Shown here: in pieces, positions 20,461-27,153 of the stretch
Position numbering within the stretch: the first letter of the stretch is position 1
Layout: each line of letters starts with the position of its first letter
Assembly (NCBI GenBank): GCA_035288045.1
Contig: DATEBA010000023.1
Coordinates: 3,356 to 67,355 of the forward strand
DNA length: 64,000 bases
Direction: 5' to 3'
From: Actinomycetota bacterium
Lineage (GTDB): Bacteria; Actinomycetota; UBA4738; HRBIN12
The notes under the pieces: generated by a model
The model's input: the letters and a program-made list of their open reading frames with translations, nothing else
Database searches by the model: none
What the model was told of the DNA's origin: nothing
Made by a program: the position numbers and the translations under genes

Positions 20461-21630
20461 TCAGGCGGAGAGCGCCGCGGCGGGGACCTTCTTGCTCGGG
20501 TCCACGAAGGGAAGCGCGGCAGTCTTTCCCGCGGTCCGCTCCCCTCCCCGCCAGAGGATCTCGACCTCGATCCCCGGATCGGCGAGCTCGATCGGAACCC
20601 AGACGTACCCGATGTTCTTCTCCAGGCGAGGCGACCAGATCAGGTCCGTCACGTAGCCGACCTCCCGGCCGTCGTGGAGCGCGGGCCGGACCTCCGAGAT
20701 CTCGAAGTCGAGCGCCTCGCCCGGAACCTCGATTCCGACGAGCTTCTTCGTCACGCCCTCGTTGCGGATCCTCGCGAGGGCGGCCTTGCCGATGTAGTCG
20801 GCTTGCTGCTCCTCGACGAGTCGTTCGAGGCCCATCACCTCGAACGGGTTGTTGCGGATGGTCATGTCCGAGCCGTAGTTGAAGATGCCCGCTTCGATCC
20901 GGCGGGCCTCAACCGGCGCGATCGGGCGGATCTGGTAGGGCTCCCCCGCCTGCATGATCCTGTCCCACATCTCGCTCCCACGCGTCGGGTCCATCAGGTA
21001 GATCTCGAACCCGACCTCGCCAGTCCAGCCCGTCCGGCTGACCACGACCGGGATGTCGTCGAGCCGCGTCTGCATCGTCCAGTAGTACTTGATCTCAAGG
21101 ACCCCGTCACCGAACAGGTCGCGCAGCACGTCCTTGGACTTCGGCCCCTGCACCTGCACCGGGTAGACGTCCGGCTCGTCGACGCGGACGTCCAGCCCCG
21201 AGTTGACCGCGACGCCACGCGCGTAGAGGCCGGCGTCGCTGTCGGCCAGAGCCAGCCAGTACCGGTTCTCCTCCAGGCGGAGAAGAACGGGGTCGTTCAC
21301 GATCCCGCCGTCCTCCGCCATGATCAACGCGTACTTGCCCTGGCCGACCGCGCACTTGTCGAGGTCCCGGCAGGTCAGCATGTTCGTGAACCGGTGGGCG
21401 TCGGAACCTGTGATCTCGACGATCCGCTCGACCGAGACGTCCCAGAGCGTCACTTGCTCGAGGAGGTGCCAGTACTCCTTCACCGGGTCGTCGTAGTAGC
21501 CCGGCAGGTACATGTGGTTGTAGATGTCGTATGCCTTGCACCCGGCCTCGAGCGTCTTCTCAAAGAACGGCGACTTCCTGTACCAGGGGCCGAAATAGAG
21601 CGTGGTCGACGTGTTGCCGAACTCGGTCAT
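20461..21630 (-). CDS. GcvT-family (aminomethyltransferase-like) THF-dependent methyltransferase/demethylase, paralog 1
   Basis: ORF 389 aa with GcvT N- and C-domain patterns. Paralogous to 23115..24269 (LWDVSVER..., VVVSRTGWTGEVG..., PFVDP). Confidence 0.7.
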   Translation of the reverse strand: MTEFGNTSTTLYFGPWYRKSPFFEKTLEAGCKAYDIYNHMYLPGYYDDPVKEYWHLLEQVTLWDVSVERIVEITGSDAHRFTNMLTCRDLDKCAVGQGKYALIMAEDGGIVNDPVLLRLEENRYWLALADSDAGLYARGVAVNSGLDVRVDEPDVYPVQVQGPKSKDVLRDLFGDGVLEIKYYWTMQTRLDDIPVVVSRTGWTGEVGFEIYLMDPTRGSEMWDRIMQAGEPYQIRPIAPVEARRIEAGIFNYGSDMTIRNNPFEVMGLERLVEEQQADYIGKAALARIRNEGVTKKLVGIEVPGEALDFEISEVRPALHDGREVGYVTDLIWSPRLEKNIGYVWVPIELADPGIEVEILWRGGERTAGKTAALPFVDPSKKVPAAALSA

Positions 21631-21712
21631 GCTGGTGCCCTCCCTGTCCGAACCCCGGGCTCTCCACCCGCGCTGATTGAATCTTCAGTCAAGCCGGCCC
21701 TCCCGTGCAAGT

Positions 21713-22669
21713 TCAGGCGGAAGTGGGCACGGCCACCTCGGGGCGCGGGAGGAGGCCCGCTTCCTCGATGAGCGCCAGGATGTCTTCGCGACCTCCGATG
21801 GACATGAGGTGGACCCCCGAGACCCCGGGTAGCTCCCTGGCCCCGTGGAGGACCTCGAGGGCGATCCTCCTACCCTCCTCCGCCTGGCGTTCGGCCGGCG
21901 TTCCCTCCATGCGCTCGATCACCCAGTCCGGGACATCGATACCGGGTACCTGATCGCGGAGGTACCGTGCTCCCCTTAGGGAACGGGGGATGAAGATGCC
22001 GACGAGCACGAACACTCGGTCGAGCGCTCCGAGCTCGCCGGCGCGAGCCATGAACTCGCGGAGCTTGGACACGTTGAAGCAGATCTGGGTCTGGATGAAC
22101 TGGGCGCCCGCCTCCACCTTCTTCTGGAGACGGATCGGGCGGAAATCGAGCGGAGGCGCGAACGGGTTCTCGACCGCGCCGATGAAGAATCGCGGAGACT
22201 CCGTGAGCCGGCGCCCGGATAGGTAGGTCCCGTCGTCGCGCAAGATCCGAGCGATCCGAATCAGGTGGAGCGAATCGAGGTCGTAGATCGCCTTTGCCTC
22301 TGGGTGGTCGCCGGCGGACACGTCGTCGCCGGTCATGAGCATCACGTTCCGCACCCCGAGCGCGGCCGTGCCGAGCAAGTCCGCCTGAAGTCCGAGGCGG
22401 TTCCGGTCGCGGCAGGTGAACTGCGCGATCGGCTCGATGCCGCGATCGACGAGCAGGTGCGCGGCCGCGACCTGCGAGATGTGGGGGTGAGCGGCGCTGT
22501 TGTCGGTGCAGTTCACGGCGTCGACCTTGCCCCGCAAGGGATCCGCGACGGCGTGGACCGACTCGGGATCAGCGCCGTCGGTCGTCTCGAGCTCGCAGGT
22601 GACGGCGAAGTGCCCGCCCCTGAGCAGCGCTTCCAGTCGACTCGCCGGTGGGCGTCCGGTCTGGCTCAT
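21713..22669 (-). CDS. metF: 5,10-methylenetetrahydrofolate reductase (MetF family)
   Basis: Internal start M140 of ORF 21713..23086, in an ATGA overlap with the upstream gene. HFAVTCELETTDGAD...FTCRDRN...LLGTAALGVRNVMLMTGD is the MTHFR TIM-barrel pattern. Confidence 0.75.
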   Translation of the reverse strand: MSQTGRPPASRLEALLRGGHFAVTCELETTDGADPESVHAVADPLRGKVDAVNCTDNSAAHPHISQVAAAHLLVDRGIEPIAQFTCRDRNRLGLQADLLGTAALGVRNVMLMTGDDVSAGDHPEAKAIYDLDSLHLIRIARILRDDGTYLSGRRLTESPRFFIGAVENPFAPPLDFRPIRLQKKVEAGAQFIQTQICFNVSKLREFMARAGELGALDRVFVLVGIFIPRSLRGARYLRDQVPGIDVPDWVIERMEGTPAERQAEEGRRIALEVLHGARELPGVSGVHLMSIGGREDILALIEEAGLLPRPEVAVPTSA

Positions 22670-23046
22670 TCGCGCTTCACTTGCTCGTCGGCCCATCCTG
22701 CCGGCACCAGCTTGTCCCGCCGGGTGAGTAGGTTCACCCAGGACGAGGTGCCCTCCAGCTGCCAATCCACCGGCGGGTTCAGGTGCTCCATATGGTCCCG
22801 CCAGAGCGGAAGCTTCCGAGAGCGCTCCCAGGCAACCACCCAGGTGCACATGCGGTCGGGTTCCACCTCGCAGTTGCCGTTCTGCAAGACGCCGCCGCAG
22901 GGACCGTTGCGGAGGTTCTTCGGGCAGGTCATTGGGCATCGGAGCCCCGTGGAGTGCAGGATGCACTGGCCGCACATCCGGCAGTCCCAGAGCGGCTCCT
23001 TCGTGACCTTCTCCACGAGGAGGATCGCTCGCGTGCCGAGCCCCAT
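22666..23046 (-). CDS. MTHFR C-terminal-domain (MetV-like) Cys-rich zinc-ribbon protein
   Basis: Internal start M138 of ORF 22666..23457. CRMCGQCILHSTGLRCPMTCPKNLRNGPCGG...NCEVEPDRMCTW gives a multi-Cys pattern, as in the stand-alone MTHFR_C partner of MetF. Confidence 0.6.
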   Translation of the reverse strand: MGLGTRAILLVEKVTKEPLWDCRMCGQCILHSTGLRCPMTCPKNLRNGPCGGVLQNGNCEVEPDRMCTWVVAWERSRKLPLWRDHMEHLNPPVDWQLEGTSSWVNLLTRRDKLVPAGWADEQVKRE

Positions 23047-23114
23047 CTTCGGGCGCCCCCTCGCATTGGCCGTCTCCACCTGCCACCTCCCGTGGGGATC
23101 TCCCCGCCCCTCGA

Positions 23115-24269
23115 CTAGGAGACGGGGATCTGCTTGTTCGGGTCGACGAACGGCATCTCGACCACGGTCGCAGTCCGCGTGCCCCACTCGCTCTCCACGA
23201 TCACCCTCGTGCCGAGCTCGGACCGAGCCGTCGGCAGCCAGGCGAAGCCGATGTTCTTCTCCAGACGCGGCGAGTAGATCGCGGAGGTCACCTTTCCGAT
23301 CTTCGCCCCATCCTCGACCACCGGCCACTTCACGTAGTTGAGCGCGGGGAACGGGGCGCCGTCGAGCTCGACCCCGTTGATCCTGCGGGTCACGCCCCGC
23401 TCCTTGATCCGTCGGAGCGCCTTGAGGGAGATGCTCGCGTCGTCCGGCACGTCCCAATCGACCAGGCGCTCCAACCCCATCTCGAGCGGATCGTTCTCGT
23501 AGGTCATGTCTGCGCCCCAGTTGAAGATCGCGCCCTCGATCCGCCTGATGTCCGAGGGGCCGGTCGGTTTGATGTTGAACTCCTCGCCGGCCTTCATGAT
23601 GGCCTCGTAGACCTCCGCGCCCCGAGACGCATCGATCGTGTAGACCTCGTAGCCAACCTCGGAGGTCCAGCCCGTCCGCGTCACGACCACCGGCACGCCT
23701 GCGATCTCCGCGTGCGTCCAGAAGTAGTACTTGAGGTCCAGGATGCTCTCGCCGAGGAGCTTCACCATCAGGTCCTTGGACTTCGGGCCCTGGACCTGGA
23801 GCGGCGCCACGTCGGCCTCGCGGATCGTGACATCGAGATCTGGGTATGCGTTCTTCAACCCGCGCGCGAACAGAAGGGCGTCGGACGACGCCAGTGCGAA
23901 CCAGAACGTGTTCTCGTCCATCCTAGTGAGGACGGGGTCGTTGATGATCCCGCCGTCGCTGTCGACGATGAGGACGTACTTGGCCTGGCCCACTGCGCAC
24001 TTCGACAGGTCCCGCGGGGTGAGGAGCTGGGCGAACGTGAAACCGTCGGGGCCGCCGATCTCCAGGCACCGCTCGACCGCGACGTCCCAGAGCGTCACGT
24101 CGTTCAGCAGAGCCTCGAACTCCGCCTCGAATGAGTCGAAGCGGATCGGGAAGTACATGTGGTTGTAGACCGTGAACCCCTTCGGCCCGTACTTCTGCGT
24201 GGCCTCGTGGTACGGCGTGCGGCGGCCCCGCGCCCCACGCTGCACCAGGCTCATGTCGAACTCGGGCAT
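23115..24269 (-). CDS. GcvT-family THF-dependent methyltransferase/demethylase, paralog 2
   Basis: ORF 384 aa. Same domain pattern as 20461..21630. Confidence 0.7.
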   Translation of the reverse strand: MPEFDMSLVQRGARGRRTPYHEATQKYGPKGFTVYNHMYFPIRFDSFEAEFEALLNDVTLWDVAVERCLEIGGPDGFTFAQLLTPRDLSKCAVGQAKYVLIVDSDGGIINDPVLTRMDENTFWFALASSDALLFARGLKNAYPDLDVTIREADVAPLQVQGPKSKDLMVKLLGESILDLKYYFWTHAEIAGVPVVVTRTGWTSEVGYEVYTIDASRGAEVYEAIMKAGEEFNIKPTGPSDIRRIEGAIFNWGADMTYENDPLEMGLERLVDWDVPDDASISLKALRRIKERGVTRRINGVELDGAPFPALNYVKWPVVEDGAKIGKVTSAIYSPRLEKNIGFAWLPTARSELGTRVIVESEWGTRTATVVEMPFVDPNKQIPVS

Positions 24270-24401: not shown

Positions 24402-25355
24402 TCAGGAGGCCGCCCCGCCGGAGTCGTTGGCCTGCGGCGGAGGGAAGATGCGCCCCTCCAGGTAGCCGCGGCCGACGATGGCCATGAACAGGTGAACCTC
24501 GTCCTCGTTCCAGGCGAAGGGCCCTTGCCGGGCGCCACGCGAGGCTAGCCCTCGCTGGACCGACTCGCACGCGGCCCAGTCCTCCCTGTTCGTCACGTCC
24601 CAGAACTCGCTCGCGTAGGAGGGGTCGAAGTCCGCGAGCTCCGTAACCTCCGGCGGAAAGAGCCAGGAGCACTCCACCCACGTCTTTCCCGGGGTGAGCG
24701 GATCCATGCGGTGCGTCATCACGTAGTCCGGGTGCAGGCTGATCAGCAGGTTAGGGAACAGCCCGTAGTAGTAGACCTCGCGGCGTTGCTTCTCGTCCAG
24801 GCCGCGGATCGGCACGCCCCCGCCCCTGCCGGTGAACGACATGGTCTCGGCGAAGTCCATGAGCTCCATGTTCCCACCGACCCAGCATCCGTTGTGGGGG
24901 AAGTTCTCACCACTGTCCACCGGCGTCACCTTGCACAGGGCCGGATGGATGCTCGGGCAGTGGTAGCACTCGTGGTAGTTCTCCGTAATCGTCTTCCAGT
25001 TAGCGTTCACGACGTATTCGTGCTTCGCCGCTACGAAGAGACGCTCGGGCTCCCACGGCGCGACGAGCTCATCGAGGTTCCCCACGTGCTCCTCGAAGGG
25101 GAGCGCATAGCCGGAGGCATCGGCGAACGCCCACCCGTGCCACTCGCGAACGACCCCGGGGCCCGAGAGTTCCTCCGCCCGACCGAGGCACACCCAGGAC
25201 CCCTCGAAGAAGTGGGAGCGTTCCCAGGCGAGAACCTCCTCTGACAGGTAGGCCTCCGGTGGCAGGGTCCGGCTCGCGCCCAGAGTGGACCTGAGCGCGG
25301 TCCGAATGGCCTGCGCGTCGACGGGTGCGATGGGTTCGACGGCTGCCCGGCTCAT
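24402..25355 (-). CDS. ring-hydroxylating oxygenase alpha-subunit homolog lacking the Rieske [2Fe-2S] domain
   Basis: ORF 317 aa. N-terminal LAWERSHFFEGSWVCLGRAEEL and the catalytic-domain motif NWKTITENYHECYHCPSIHP (mononuclear Fe His pair) are present. Only a relic (REWHGWAF) of the second Rieske box is present, and no CxH box. Confidence 0.55.
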   Translation of the reverse strand: MSRAAVEPIAPVDAQAIRTALRSTLGASRTLPPEAYLSEEVLAWERSHFFEGSWVCLGRAEELSGPGVVREWHGWAFADASGYALPFEEHVGNLDELVAPWEPERLFVAAKHEYVVNANWKTITENYHECYHCPSIHPALCKVTPVDSGENFPHNGCWVGGNMELMDFAETMSFTGRGGGVPIRGLDEKQRREVYYYGLFPNLLISLHPDYVMTHRMDPLTPGKTWVECSWLFPPEVTELADFDPSYASEFWDVTNREDWAACESVQRGLASRGARQGPFAWNEDEVHLFMAIVGRGYLEGRIFPPPQANDSGGAAS

Positions 25356-25491
25356 TCCGATCGTCCTCCGAGGGTGACCGCGGGTTTGAACGCCCGTTCA
25401 AGTGCTGCCAGAGTCTAGCATTACTGCCAGGCCGAGGAGGAAGCACAGTGCCCCGGACCGGCGGTCATCACAGACGCGACCCCGGGTCACA

Positions 25492-27153
25492 TCAGGCGAA
25501 GGACGCGTCCTCGAATACGTTCTCGCCCTCGACCAGCGTGAGCTGCACCTTCGCGTGCCCGATCTCGGAGACCGGGTGCTCGAACAGGTTCCTGTCGACA
25601 ACGGCGAGGTCGGCGTACTTGCCCACCTCGATCGACCCGGTGACTTCCTCGATGTGGTTCACGTATGCCGAGCCCATGGTGAACGCGTGGATCGCGGTCG
25701 GCAGATCGATCCGCTCCTCAGGGAGGAAGACCCCCTCGGTTCCCCTCGCGTAGGGGTAGTCGGGCGCCGGGAGGCGGTTCACCGCGACGTGTATCTCCCA
25801 GAGCGGGTTCGGGCTCGAGACCGACCAGTCGCTCCCGAAGGCCAGCATCGCGCCGTGCCGCACGAGGCTTGCGAATGGGTACTGCCACGTCGAGCGCTGG
25901 GCGCCGAGGAACGGGACCGTGAGGTTCAGCATCTGACCCTCGTTGATCGCCCACAGGGGCTGGCCGTTGGCGACGACACCGAGCTCGCGGAACCTCGGCA
26001 GGTCGTCGGGGTGGATCACCTGTATGTGTGCGATGTGGTGGCGGTTGTCGTTCATACCGTTGGCATGTCGGGCGGCCTCGACGGCGTCGAGGGACTCCCT
26101 GACCGACCGCTCCCCGATCGCGTGGAAGTGCACCTGGAAGCCCTCGGCGTCGAGGCGGGTCACGTGCACCTTGAGCGCCTCAGGATGGACGAAGCTCTTC
26201 CCGCGGTTTTCGGTCGGGTTCCCCTCTGCGTCGAGGTACGGCTCCAGCACGCCTCCGGTGAAGTTCTCCAGGACGCCGTCCTGCATGATCTTGATCGTCG
26301 TCGCGCGGAAGCGACCTACCGTTCCTCGCGCGCGCTGATCGATGAACTCGGCGATCTGCCCGGCGTCGCGGTAGCGATCCCACCAGAGCGCCCCAACGAC
26401 CCGGGCGGTCAGGTCGCCGCGCGAGGCGGCCTCCTTGTACGCCTCGTAGGAGGGGTAGTGTCCTCCGACGATCGCGTCCTGCCAGGCGGTGATGCCCAGC
26501 GAGTGCAGGTATTCCTGCGCGACCAGGAGACCGTCGATCCAGTCCTTGACGGTGATCTCCGGCACCAGATCCACGACGGGCTGCATCGCCCCCTCGTGGA
26601 GGGTCCCGAACGGGGCTCCCTCGGCGTCACGCTCGATCACGCCGTCGGCCGGGTCGGGGGTCTCCTTGGTGATCCCTGCCAGCTCGAGGACCTTCGAGTT
26701 GACCCAGGCGCTGTGGCCGTCCCGGCTCGTGAGGAAGACTGGGCGGTCCGGGACGAGCGCGTCGAGCTCGGTCTTGGGGGGTGCTCCGCGGGGGAAGACG
26801 TCCATCGACCACCCGCCGCCCAGGATCCATGGCTCCTCCGGGTGCTCCTGAGCGTACGCTCGGATGATCCTTCGGTACGCGTCGAGCTCGTATTCGTCCG
26901 AGAGGTTGCAGTGCGCCATCTCCCAGCCGCCGGACGGCGGGTGGACGTGCGCGTCCTGGAACCCCGGGAGGAGCATGCGCCCGTTCAGGTCGTGCACCTC
27001 CGTTCGGGGCCCGACGAGGTCCTGGACGTCCGCGTCGGTCCCAACGGCCACGATACGACCGCGTCGGATCGCGACCGCGCCGGCCCATCTGCGCGCGGCG
27101 TCGACCGTGTAGACGGCTCCGCCCATGAAGACAAGATCCGCGTTCTCGCTCAC
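25492..27153 (-). CDS. amidohydrolase-3 (YtcJ-like) family metal-dependent hydrolase
   Basis: GTG start (V91 of ORF 25492..27423) preceded by GGAGG-tgacg. VSENADLVFMGGAVYTVD...FQDAHVHP...HFHAIGE...GSDW are the amidohydrolase metal-ligand motifs. Confidence 0.7.
   Translation of the reverse strand: MSENADLVFMGGAVYTVDAARRWAGAVAIRRGRIVAVGTDADVQDLVGPRTEVHDLNGRMLLPGFQDAHVHPPSGGWEMAHCNLSDEYELDAYRRIIRAYAQEHPEEPWILGGGWSMDVFPRGAPPKTELDALVPDRPVFLTSRDGHSAWVNSKVLELAGITKETPDPADGVIERDAEGAPFGTLHEGAMQPVVDLVPEITVKDWIDGLLVAQEYLHSLGITAWQDAIVGGHYPSYEAYKEAASRGDLTARVVGALWWDRYRDAGQIAEFIDQRARGTVGRFRATTIKIMQDGVLENFTGGVLEPYLDAEGNPTENRGKSFVHPEALKVHVTRLDAEGFQVHFHAIGERSVRESLDAVEAARHANGMNDNRHHIAHIQVIHPDDLPRFRELGVVANGQPLWAINEGQMLNLTVPFLGAQRSTWQYPFASLVRHGAMLAFGSDWSVSSPNPLWEIHVAVNRLPAPDYPYARGTEGVFLPEERIDLPTAIHAFTMGSAYVNHIEEVTGSIEVGKYADLAVVDRNLFEHPVSEIGHAKVQLTLVEGENVFEDASFA

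Follow-up and report, generated by a model that had tools for sequence, protein, structure and literature searches.

What defines a Rieske oxygenase is a Rieske cluster paired with a mononuclear iron site, and the group-V enzymes are head-to-tail α3 trimers with a dedicated reductase and with electron transfer between subunits. In CntA-type enzymes the electrons go from the Rieske cluster of one subunit through a bridging glutamate to the mononuclear iron of the neighbouring subunit, and mutants of this glutamate are inactive (PMC7948474). The only documented exception to the pairing of cluster and iron site that was found in the literature is NdmC, the demethylating oxygenase subunit of the caffeine N7-demethylase NdmCDE of Pseudomonas putida CBB5, which is naturally devoid of a Rieske cluster (PMC4408171). 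In that system the reductase NdmD carries the lost Rieske domain as a fusion, a glutathione S-transferase (GST)-like protein, NdmE, is required, and both are encoded next to ndmC. Here we describe an oxygenase gene on a 64,000-nucleotide stretch of DNA from an Actinomycetota bacterium (contig DATEBA010000023.1), hereafter the window, to which all coordinates refer unless a locus is named. An in-frame deletion removed the [2Fe-2S] Rieske domain from this gene in one actinobacterial population. The gene comes from a known enzyme family and was derived by a deletion specific to its lineage; we lean towards reading it as a recently disabled one, a relic. The features of the gene on which the analysis relies are as follows.

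24402..25355, minus strand: 317-residue Rieske-less oxygenase alpha-subunit homologue, made of the catalytic domain and Rieske-domain stubs (list of open reading frames, Pfam)
25364..25369, minus strand: Shine-Dalgarno-like GGAGGA, read from the sequence, 8 nucleotides before the ATG
25152..25157, minus strand: deletion junction, codons of G67 (GGG) and V68 (GTC), breakpoint between 25155 and 25154 (alignments; pairwise comparison with P0002; codon view against L016, L018 and L020)
25101..25226, minus strand: surviving Rieske-domain flanks, about residues 44-85, WERSHFFEGSWVCLGRAEELSGPG and VVREWHGWAFADASG, also conserved in the full-length homologues, where they flank the Rieske core
24942..24983, minus strand: iron-site motif ENYHECYHCPSIHP, residues 125-138, with Y127, the bridging Glu129, the C130/C133 pair and the ligands H132 and H137; invariant in homologues
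24579..24581, minus strand: codon GAC of D259, the putative third iron ligand; GGC (Gly) in L011, L012 and L014 (Stc2 alignment, table of single-nucleotide polymorphisms, protein variants P0122, P0127 and P0129)

The open reading frame (ORF) starts with ATG, and its product matches a single Pfam family, PF00848 Ring_hydroxyl_A (E 2.7e-49, residues 105-294), while no match to the Rieske domain PF00355 was found in Pfam even at E ≤ 1. A close full-length homologue used as control, P0003, matches both PF00355 (E 1.9e-19) and PF00848. The NCBIfam model of GbcA (NF058607) gave a partial match in two stretches, the better one at residues 69-142, with 81.2 bits against an equivalog cut-off of 670 bits. 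The nearest solved structures by sequence are Stc2, the 3n0q protein and CntA, and the same three are the top fold matches of an AlphaFold2 monomer model of the protein (mean predicted local distance difference test score, pLDDT, 89.5; predicted template-modelling score 0.90). In the structure alignment the solved enzymes share only ~18-19% identity with it. NCBI lists the deleted form as HLB61707.1, labelled 'RHO alpha subunit C-terminal catalytic domain-containing protein', and the window protein is identical to this P0121/HLB61707.1 cluster.

A homologue search covering 5.8 billion proteins was performed and the 119 best matches outside the protein's own cluster were retained. These nearest homologues are 388-431 residues long, share ~65-78% identity with the window protein and carry PF00355 together with PF00848 in 119 of 119 cases. 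Hence the first-pass annotation of the window, made from the sequence alone, was right in seeing here a Rieske-type oxygenase alpha-subunit homologue without its Rieske domain and a relative of the GbcA/CntA-type demethylating enzymes; the N-terminal and catalytic iron-motif peptides that it quoted are both present in the ORF, and the protein does not belong to an SRPBCC-only family that never carries a Rieske domain, since its nearest relatives all bear one.

Aligned to these homologues, the protein shows a single in-frame gap, between G67 and V68 (nucleotides 25155 and 25154), and 80-85 residues are absent, including both cluster boxes, CRHRGH and CPYHAW. This is more than the ~70 residues first estimated. 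Furthermore, the string REWHGWAF, initially taken for a remnant of the second Rieske box, is not one: both boxes are wholly gone, and in full-length homologues CPYHAW is followed ~30 residues on by a separate conserved strand, (V/A)EWHGW(V/L)F. HMMER does pair 'rewhgw' with 'cpyhqw' of Stc2, but weakly (-2 bits). In the AlphaFold2 model the surviving flanks form a small strand element joined at 'SGPG', with strands at residues 55-59, 69-72 and 75-78; pLDDT drops from 94-97 in the flanks to 77 at the junction block.

The gene order at this locus was compared with that around full-length genes. Relatives L018 and L019 hold a full-length oxygenase in the same slot and match the window from the amidohydrolase gene through the MTHFR gene onward, without the second GcvT-like gene; relative L020 also has a full-length oxygenase there, with the amidohydrolase and two GcvT-like genes downstream. 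Full-length genes in the same slot of relatives make the window gene a positional orthologue minus one domain. This orthologue belongs to the group-V Rieske non-haem-iron monooxygenases (the CntA, Stc2 and GbcA family). The loss is thus a deletion in an orthologue, because PF00848 stands alone here, all 119 homologues have two domains and the gene order is shared with full-length genes. The link to a tetrahydrofolate (THF) gene cluster proposed at first is supported by this synteny, since full-length orthologues lie upstream of GcvT in L018, L019 and L020, though not in L016 and L017, which are without the THF (GcvT) genes; the position assigned to the gene within the cluster was mistaken, as it is the first and not the last gene of a co-directional minus-strand GcvT/DUF5981/MTHFR/GcvT run.

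The iron site has been left intact. H132 and H137 correspond to residues 204 and 209 of Stc2 in the alignment and are invariant in homologues, and D259 aligns with Stc2 residue 360, which we take to be the third iron ligand, in a column that is Asp in 100% of the 119 homologues. The 2-His-1-carboxylate catalytic domain is therefore present (PF00848 at the E value given above; H132, H137, D259), as is the group-V hallmark of a bridging glutamate three residues before the first histidine ligand together with a CxxC pair (E129-C130-Y-H132-C133). The motif fits that of CntA, Y203-x-E205-C206-x-H208-C209-xxx-H213 (PMC7948474), whose E205/C206/C209 pattern is also described in PMC10952381. By motif register Y127 (codon 24975..24977), two residues before the bridging glutamate, takes the place of CntA Y203, whose pi-cation contact holds the quaternary ammonium group; in Stc2 this residue is Asn. 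This hints at CntA-like substrate binding in this actinobacterial family. Hence the window protein shares the His-His-Asp triad, the bridging glutamate and the CxxC pair beside the iron with Stc2 (PDB 3vca/4qup), CntA (6y8j) and GbcA/BmoA, but differs from them in having no [2Fe-2S] Rieske domain and no CntB/GbcB-type reductase nearby. Like NdmC, it is a catalytic subunit without a Rieske cluster, and NdmC shows that the cluster can be supplied in trans. Unlike NdmC, it comes from another subfamily and arose by recent deletion. Moreover, in contrast to the NdmCDE genes, there is no Rieske-bearing gene in the 64 kb: no Rieske CxH...CxxH motif was found in any ORF of at least 80 residues across the window, and none of the genes within ±10 kb carries a Pfam label for a reductase, ferredoxin or GST.

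An assembly or gene-calling artefact, with the Rieske part in another frame or elsewhere nearby, would be a trivial explanation, and it can be considered extremely improbable. The 317-residue form is found on 17 contigs, each from another assembly (JGI, ENA), and a frameshifted variant on an 18th; the exact window protein is on at least 13 contigs of JGI and ENA assemblies, and variants are on further contigs. The same junction is thus present on 18 contigs, each a different JGI or ENA assembly, and NCBI lists the 317-residue protein too. A tblastn search with a full-length homologue gave one hit only, with no displaced Rieske segment in the window, and no CxH...CxxH motif occurs in any frame of the window. 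An artefact or a displaced Rieske fragment is excluded by the junction shared among many independent contigs, the tblastn result and the motif scan, and no point was found in its favour. The protein's own cluster comprises 10 members, eight full-length for this form (317 residues, ~99% identity) and two frameshifted. In the 5.8-billion-protein search no relatives at 78-93% identity were present; the deleted form accordingly belongs to one isolated, species-level population, and the deletion looks confined to this lineage.

This population also contains alleles with additional lesions. The substitution D259G is carried by L011, L012, L014 and P0129 and would abolish the aspartate ligand. In L013 and P0129 an inserted T (+1) at about codon 282 replaces the conserved C-terminal helix. 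Two further substitutions, A84V and V181M, introduce residues absent from all 119 homologues at those columns. In total seven amino-acid variants were counted in the deleted form, one to three of them on conserved columns, which is too few for statistics.

These observations can be combined as follows. The gene is the positional orthologue of a group-V monooxygenase, from the family demethylating or cleaving quaternary-amine and N-methyl substrates, and in this population one in-frame deletion of ~85 codons has stripped it of its [2Fe-2S] Rieske domain. Since the Rieske cluster is gone, the protein cannot work by the CntA route on its own; a product without its own cluster would be unable to activate O2 by the canonical inter-subunit route, and loss of activity in the window protein is what we infer. 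Measured against the long branch of the lineage, the deletion would be recent, with little time yet for decay: the window allele is still intact and is predicted to fold, while other strains of the population already carry further lesions. The fact that every other orthologue of the window type examined keeps its Rieske domain was counted toward a relic, which also fits the lack of a donor in the 64 kb and the two disabling alleles, one losing an iron ligand and one frameshifted. The two THF-dependent GcvT-like genes of the cluster could, in addition, make the oxygenase route redundant.

Several results weigh against a relic. The window allele has neither stop codon nor frameshift and keeps all catalytic residues and a good ribosome-binding site. 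Of the 121 columns conserved at 97% or more, it departs from the homologues at two, a count inside the family range, and its relative-rate excess is just 0.00 to +0.03. Nei-Gojobori ratios of non-synonymous to synonymous substitution rates (dN/dS) are 0.25-0.32 against full-length orthologues, compared to 0.25-0.28 for the full-length ones among themselves. The excision occurred at domain boundaries and the AlphaFold2 model is confident. Population polymorphism is also too sparse to set the oxygenase apart from its neighbours: on the contigs for which DNA is available it shows two synonymous and three non-synonymous changes, and neighbouring genes show similar ratios. Finally, Rieske-less relatives elsewhere are clearly kept by selection. 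The relative-rate, conserved-column and pairwise dN/dS tests are, however, of a kind that cannot tell a recent deletion from continued constraint; the dN/dS comparison with orthologues, which the first-pass annotation had proposed as a check for relaxed selection, gave no clear relaxation.

Rieske-less relatives were sought by a scan of species-representative genomes. Three of them, L053, L057 and L060, are 52-54% identical to the window protein, with near-identical boundaries, and are referred to here as the Rubrobacter type. In this type 42 of 115 cluster representatives are Rieske-less (~305-335 residues). The five Rieske-less genes whose neighbours were examined occupy the same locus as full-length 392-residue forms, flanked by a divergent gene for an amine-oxidase-like flavoprotein (in L053 by an SBP gene) and, at the opposite end, by convergent E2-E1beta-E1alpha genes. 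Same-locus examples are the full-length L104:10001-11179 and the Rieske-less L053:6001-6930, L101:10001-10930 and L102:10001-10918. The Rubrobacter-type deletion took out 83 codons between two GCGCG repeats, as seen from L104 (CAG/CGCGCC... and ATG/CGCGTC..., the slash marking the breakpoint) compared with the L053 junction CAG CGC GTC GCG GAG TGG. The window junction (..SGPG/VVREW..) differs from it, hence the two deletions are independent events. A third type (L146:1468-2463, L147 and P0526-P0534) has lost both Cys/His boxes via two smaller gaps and has kept the first Rieske strands. Its nine cluster representatives P0526-P0534, 75-100% identical, are Rieske-less in 9 of 9 cases and have an invariant iron site, and their nearest full-length relative is at most 57% identical. 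P0534 has shrunk further, to a window-like architecture. The Rubrobacter type (L053, L057, L060, L101-L103, P0130 and others) and P0526-P0534 thus share with the window protein the family (~50-54% identity), the architecture and an intact iron site, and the Rubrobacter type has nearly the same excision boundaries. They differ from it in being separate events with other breakpoints, in being diversified and constrained where the window form is a single population and, for the Rubrobacter type, in occupying another locus, with the oxygenase between the amine-oxidase-like and E2-E1 genes.

Selection on the Rubrobacter-type genes was also assessed. The median dN/dS is 0.20 in Rieske-less pairs (n = 78), equal to that of full-length pairs (n = 17). 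In tight Rieske-less groups (≤ 4% divergence), 17.7% of substitutions (41/231) fall at columns at least 95% conserved, compared to 13.2% (37/280) in tight full-length groups and to a uniform expectation of 44%; the Rieske-less value departs strongly from this expectation (binomial p = 3e-17) and not from that of the full-length groups (p = 0.17). The differences within tight groups must be younger than the deletion, as no full-length form lies closer than a distance of 0.08; indeed the minimum distance between any Rieske-less and any full-length representative is 0.081. The bridging glutamate, the Cys pair and both His ligands are present in 145 of 145 Rieske-less members and the Asp in 143 of 145.

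Not all of these genes are intact. L112 and L116 are frameshifted and L113 has a further in-frame deletion, and at L186:2534-3498 (also L187-L189) a Rieske-less gene is split into overlapping ORFs of 162 and 165 residues on at least 24 contigs of an abundant lineage. Some Rieske-less genes hence go on to die, by secondary frameshift in L186-L189. Frame breaks were counted in two of 13 Rieske-less loci and in three of 143 full-length loci. P0403 (150 residues) and P0405 (201 residues), which come from several samples and both list a longest contig of 12,199 nucleotides, may be the parts of a split gene and cluster with a full-length representative; they suggest that the oxygenase is dispensable in some lineages whatever its Rieske status.

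The history of the Rubrobacter-type deletion was examined with neighbour-joining trees, which interleave Rieske-less and full-length forms; bootstraps give 9-19 clades made only of Rieske-less forms. A single origin is unsupported by these trees, whose internal branches are very short, and no alignment column cleanly separates Rieske-less from full-length Rubrobacter-type forms. The interleaving suggests recurrent deletion at the GCGCG microhomology, recombination or tree noise, which are not separable here. Mixed '90%' clusters were considered as a sign of very recent deletions and rejected, as two such clusters were examined and even their closest mixed pairs differ by at least 12%. Four distant Rieske-less representatives, P0631, P0652, P0675 and P0688, have intact iron motifs at 39-52% identity. 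They keep ENY(H/S/L)EC(Y/L)HC...HP and TNxQD(W/Y), and an unusual N-terminal extension of P0652 looks like the final strand of a Rieske domain. The search of 50%-identity representatives yielded mostly fragments and served only to spot more Rieske-less forms.

These relatives bear directly on what the window protein may do. Those that underwent the same loss and are kept by selection indicate that such enzymes may get electrons another way, and the window protein could accordingly be a working catalytic subunit in which the iron site forms and electrons are supplied in trans, a possibility that we regard as serious while giving it less than even chances. Candidate donors would be a Rieske protein or a ferredoxin encoded separately, an NdmD-like reductase bearing an additional Rieske domain, or a full-length paralogue in mixed trimers, docking at the vacated Rieske-domain site beside the bridging Glu129; the conservation of this glutamate suggests that a donor still docks there. 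There is a precedent in NdmC, a cluster-less oxygenase served by the Rieske domain of NdmD (PMC4408171). Within the family the cluster was lost independently in several clades, the Rubrobacter-type Rieske-less forms are under constraint by dN/dS, conserved columns and iron ligands, and the P0526-P0534 clade is diversified, uniformly cluster-less and invariant in its iron site. These constrained clades show that the architecture is viable in this very family, and the window allele is itself intact, unaccelerated and predicted to fold. However, no donor gene is present in the 64 kb or near the Rubrobacter-type loci examined, the window lineage is undiversified and limited to a single population, that same population holds the iron-ligand-loss and frameshift alleles, and some Rubrobacter-type Rieske-less genes are frameshifted or further deleted (L112, L116, L113, L186-L189). 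The metagenome-assembled genome GS_EKS_MAG_00029 (L057 and L100) has both a Rieske-less gene of the Rubrobacter type and, elsewhere, a full-length paralogue, a co-occurrence compatible with a paralogue lending its Rieske domain in mixed trimers. A non-redox role is a third reading and an improbable one: the SRPBCC fold would have been repurposed as a ligand-binding or Lewis-acid partner (binding, regulatory or hydrolytic) of the adjacent amidohydrolase and THF enzymes. Such a role would agree with the fold, kept with high confidence in the AlphaFold2 model, and with the conserved position between amidohydrolase and GcvT, and tolerance of D259G is easier to explain if iron chemistry is dispensable. 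Against it, the iron ligands and the bridging glutamate are essentially invariant in the other Rieske-less clades, which points to iron and electron chemistry, and the pocket of the window protein shows no cluster of substitutions specific to its lineage.

The weight given to a relic and to a functional protein was set by placing the precedent given by the family against the presence, in a single small sample of the population, of two different disabling alleles, and on this balance a recently disabled gene is our preferred reading. The alternative left by the first-pass annotation, a decaying gene or a subunit fed with electrons differently, is thus narrowed on both sides: decay can now be tied to the D259G and frameshift alleles, and a working subunit to the constrained Rieske-less clades.

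Viewed from the family, the window gene may tentatively represent one case of an unrecognised recurrent outcome in actinobacterial group-V monooxygenases, in which the [2Fe-2S] domain was cut out on three or more occasions, with clearly different breakpoints (the four distant representatives suggest more), and in which the products remain under purifying selection with invariant iron ligands and glutamate. Such an outcome would imply an electron route that is unlinked or altogether different, unlike that of the canonical enzymes and of NdmCDE. A literature search on Rieske-less oxygenase alpha subunits returned cytochrome bc1 papers only, and no description of repeated clean Rieske loss combined with purifying selection and no linked donor was found in the literature searches. 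The labels 'Rieske 2Fe-2S family protein' and 'glycine betaine catabolism A' are at present given to these cluster-less proteins. If the Rieske-less proteins are active, the catalytic domain can take electrons from an unlinked or different donor. This would bear on their annotation, on predicting how Actinomycetota of soil and sediment turn over quaternary amines and N-methyl compounds, and on the engineering of minimal oxygenases. If the window gene is a fresh relic, it offers a dated snapshot of gene death, in which the clean in-frame loss of a domain precedes point lesions, and warns against reading oxygenase capacity from a PF00848 match alone.

The genes around the oxygenase are in the same order on all contigs of this population: Amidohydro_3, oxygenase, GcvT-like, DUF5981 (MTHFR_C), MTHFR, second GcvT-like, HtrA, TtuA, TrmI, ARC and PafA. 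The neighbours, assigned by Pfam, are the following.

25492..27153, minus strand: Amidohydro_3 amidohydrolase, upstream neighbour and conserved partner of the oxygenase at orthologous loci (also from synteny of L001-L020)
20461..24269, minus strand: downstream co-directional THF genes, consisting of the next four
23115..24269, minus strand: GcvT-like gene
22666..23046, minus strand: DUF5981/MTHFR_C gene
21713..22669, minus strand: MTHFR gene
20461..21630, minus strand: second GcvT-like gene

Rfam, promoter and terminator scans around the oxygenase gene found nothing. The two paralogous GcvT-like genes and the DUF5981/MTHFR pair sit between the oxygenase and the HtrA/TtuA/TrmI/Pup-proteasome genes, and the DUF5981 gene (MTHFR C-terminal, zinc-ribbon-like) overlaps the MTHFR gene by 4 nucleotides. 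The number of THF genes varies among relatives, with none of them in L016, one GcvT gene in L018 and two in L020. In the same population as the window, at L011:18205-19953, the ARC/Mpa ATPase is called as two ORFs (260 and 317 residues) instead of one of 582 residues, which represents either a frameshift allele or an assembly error.

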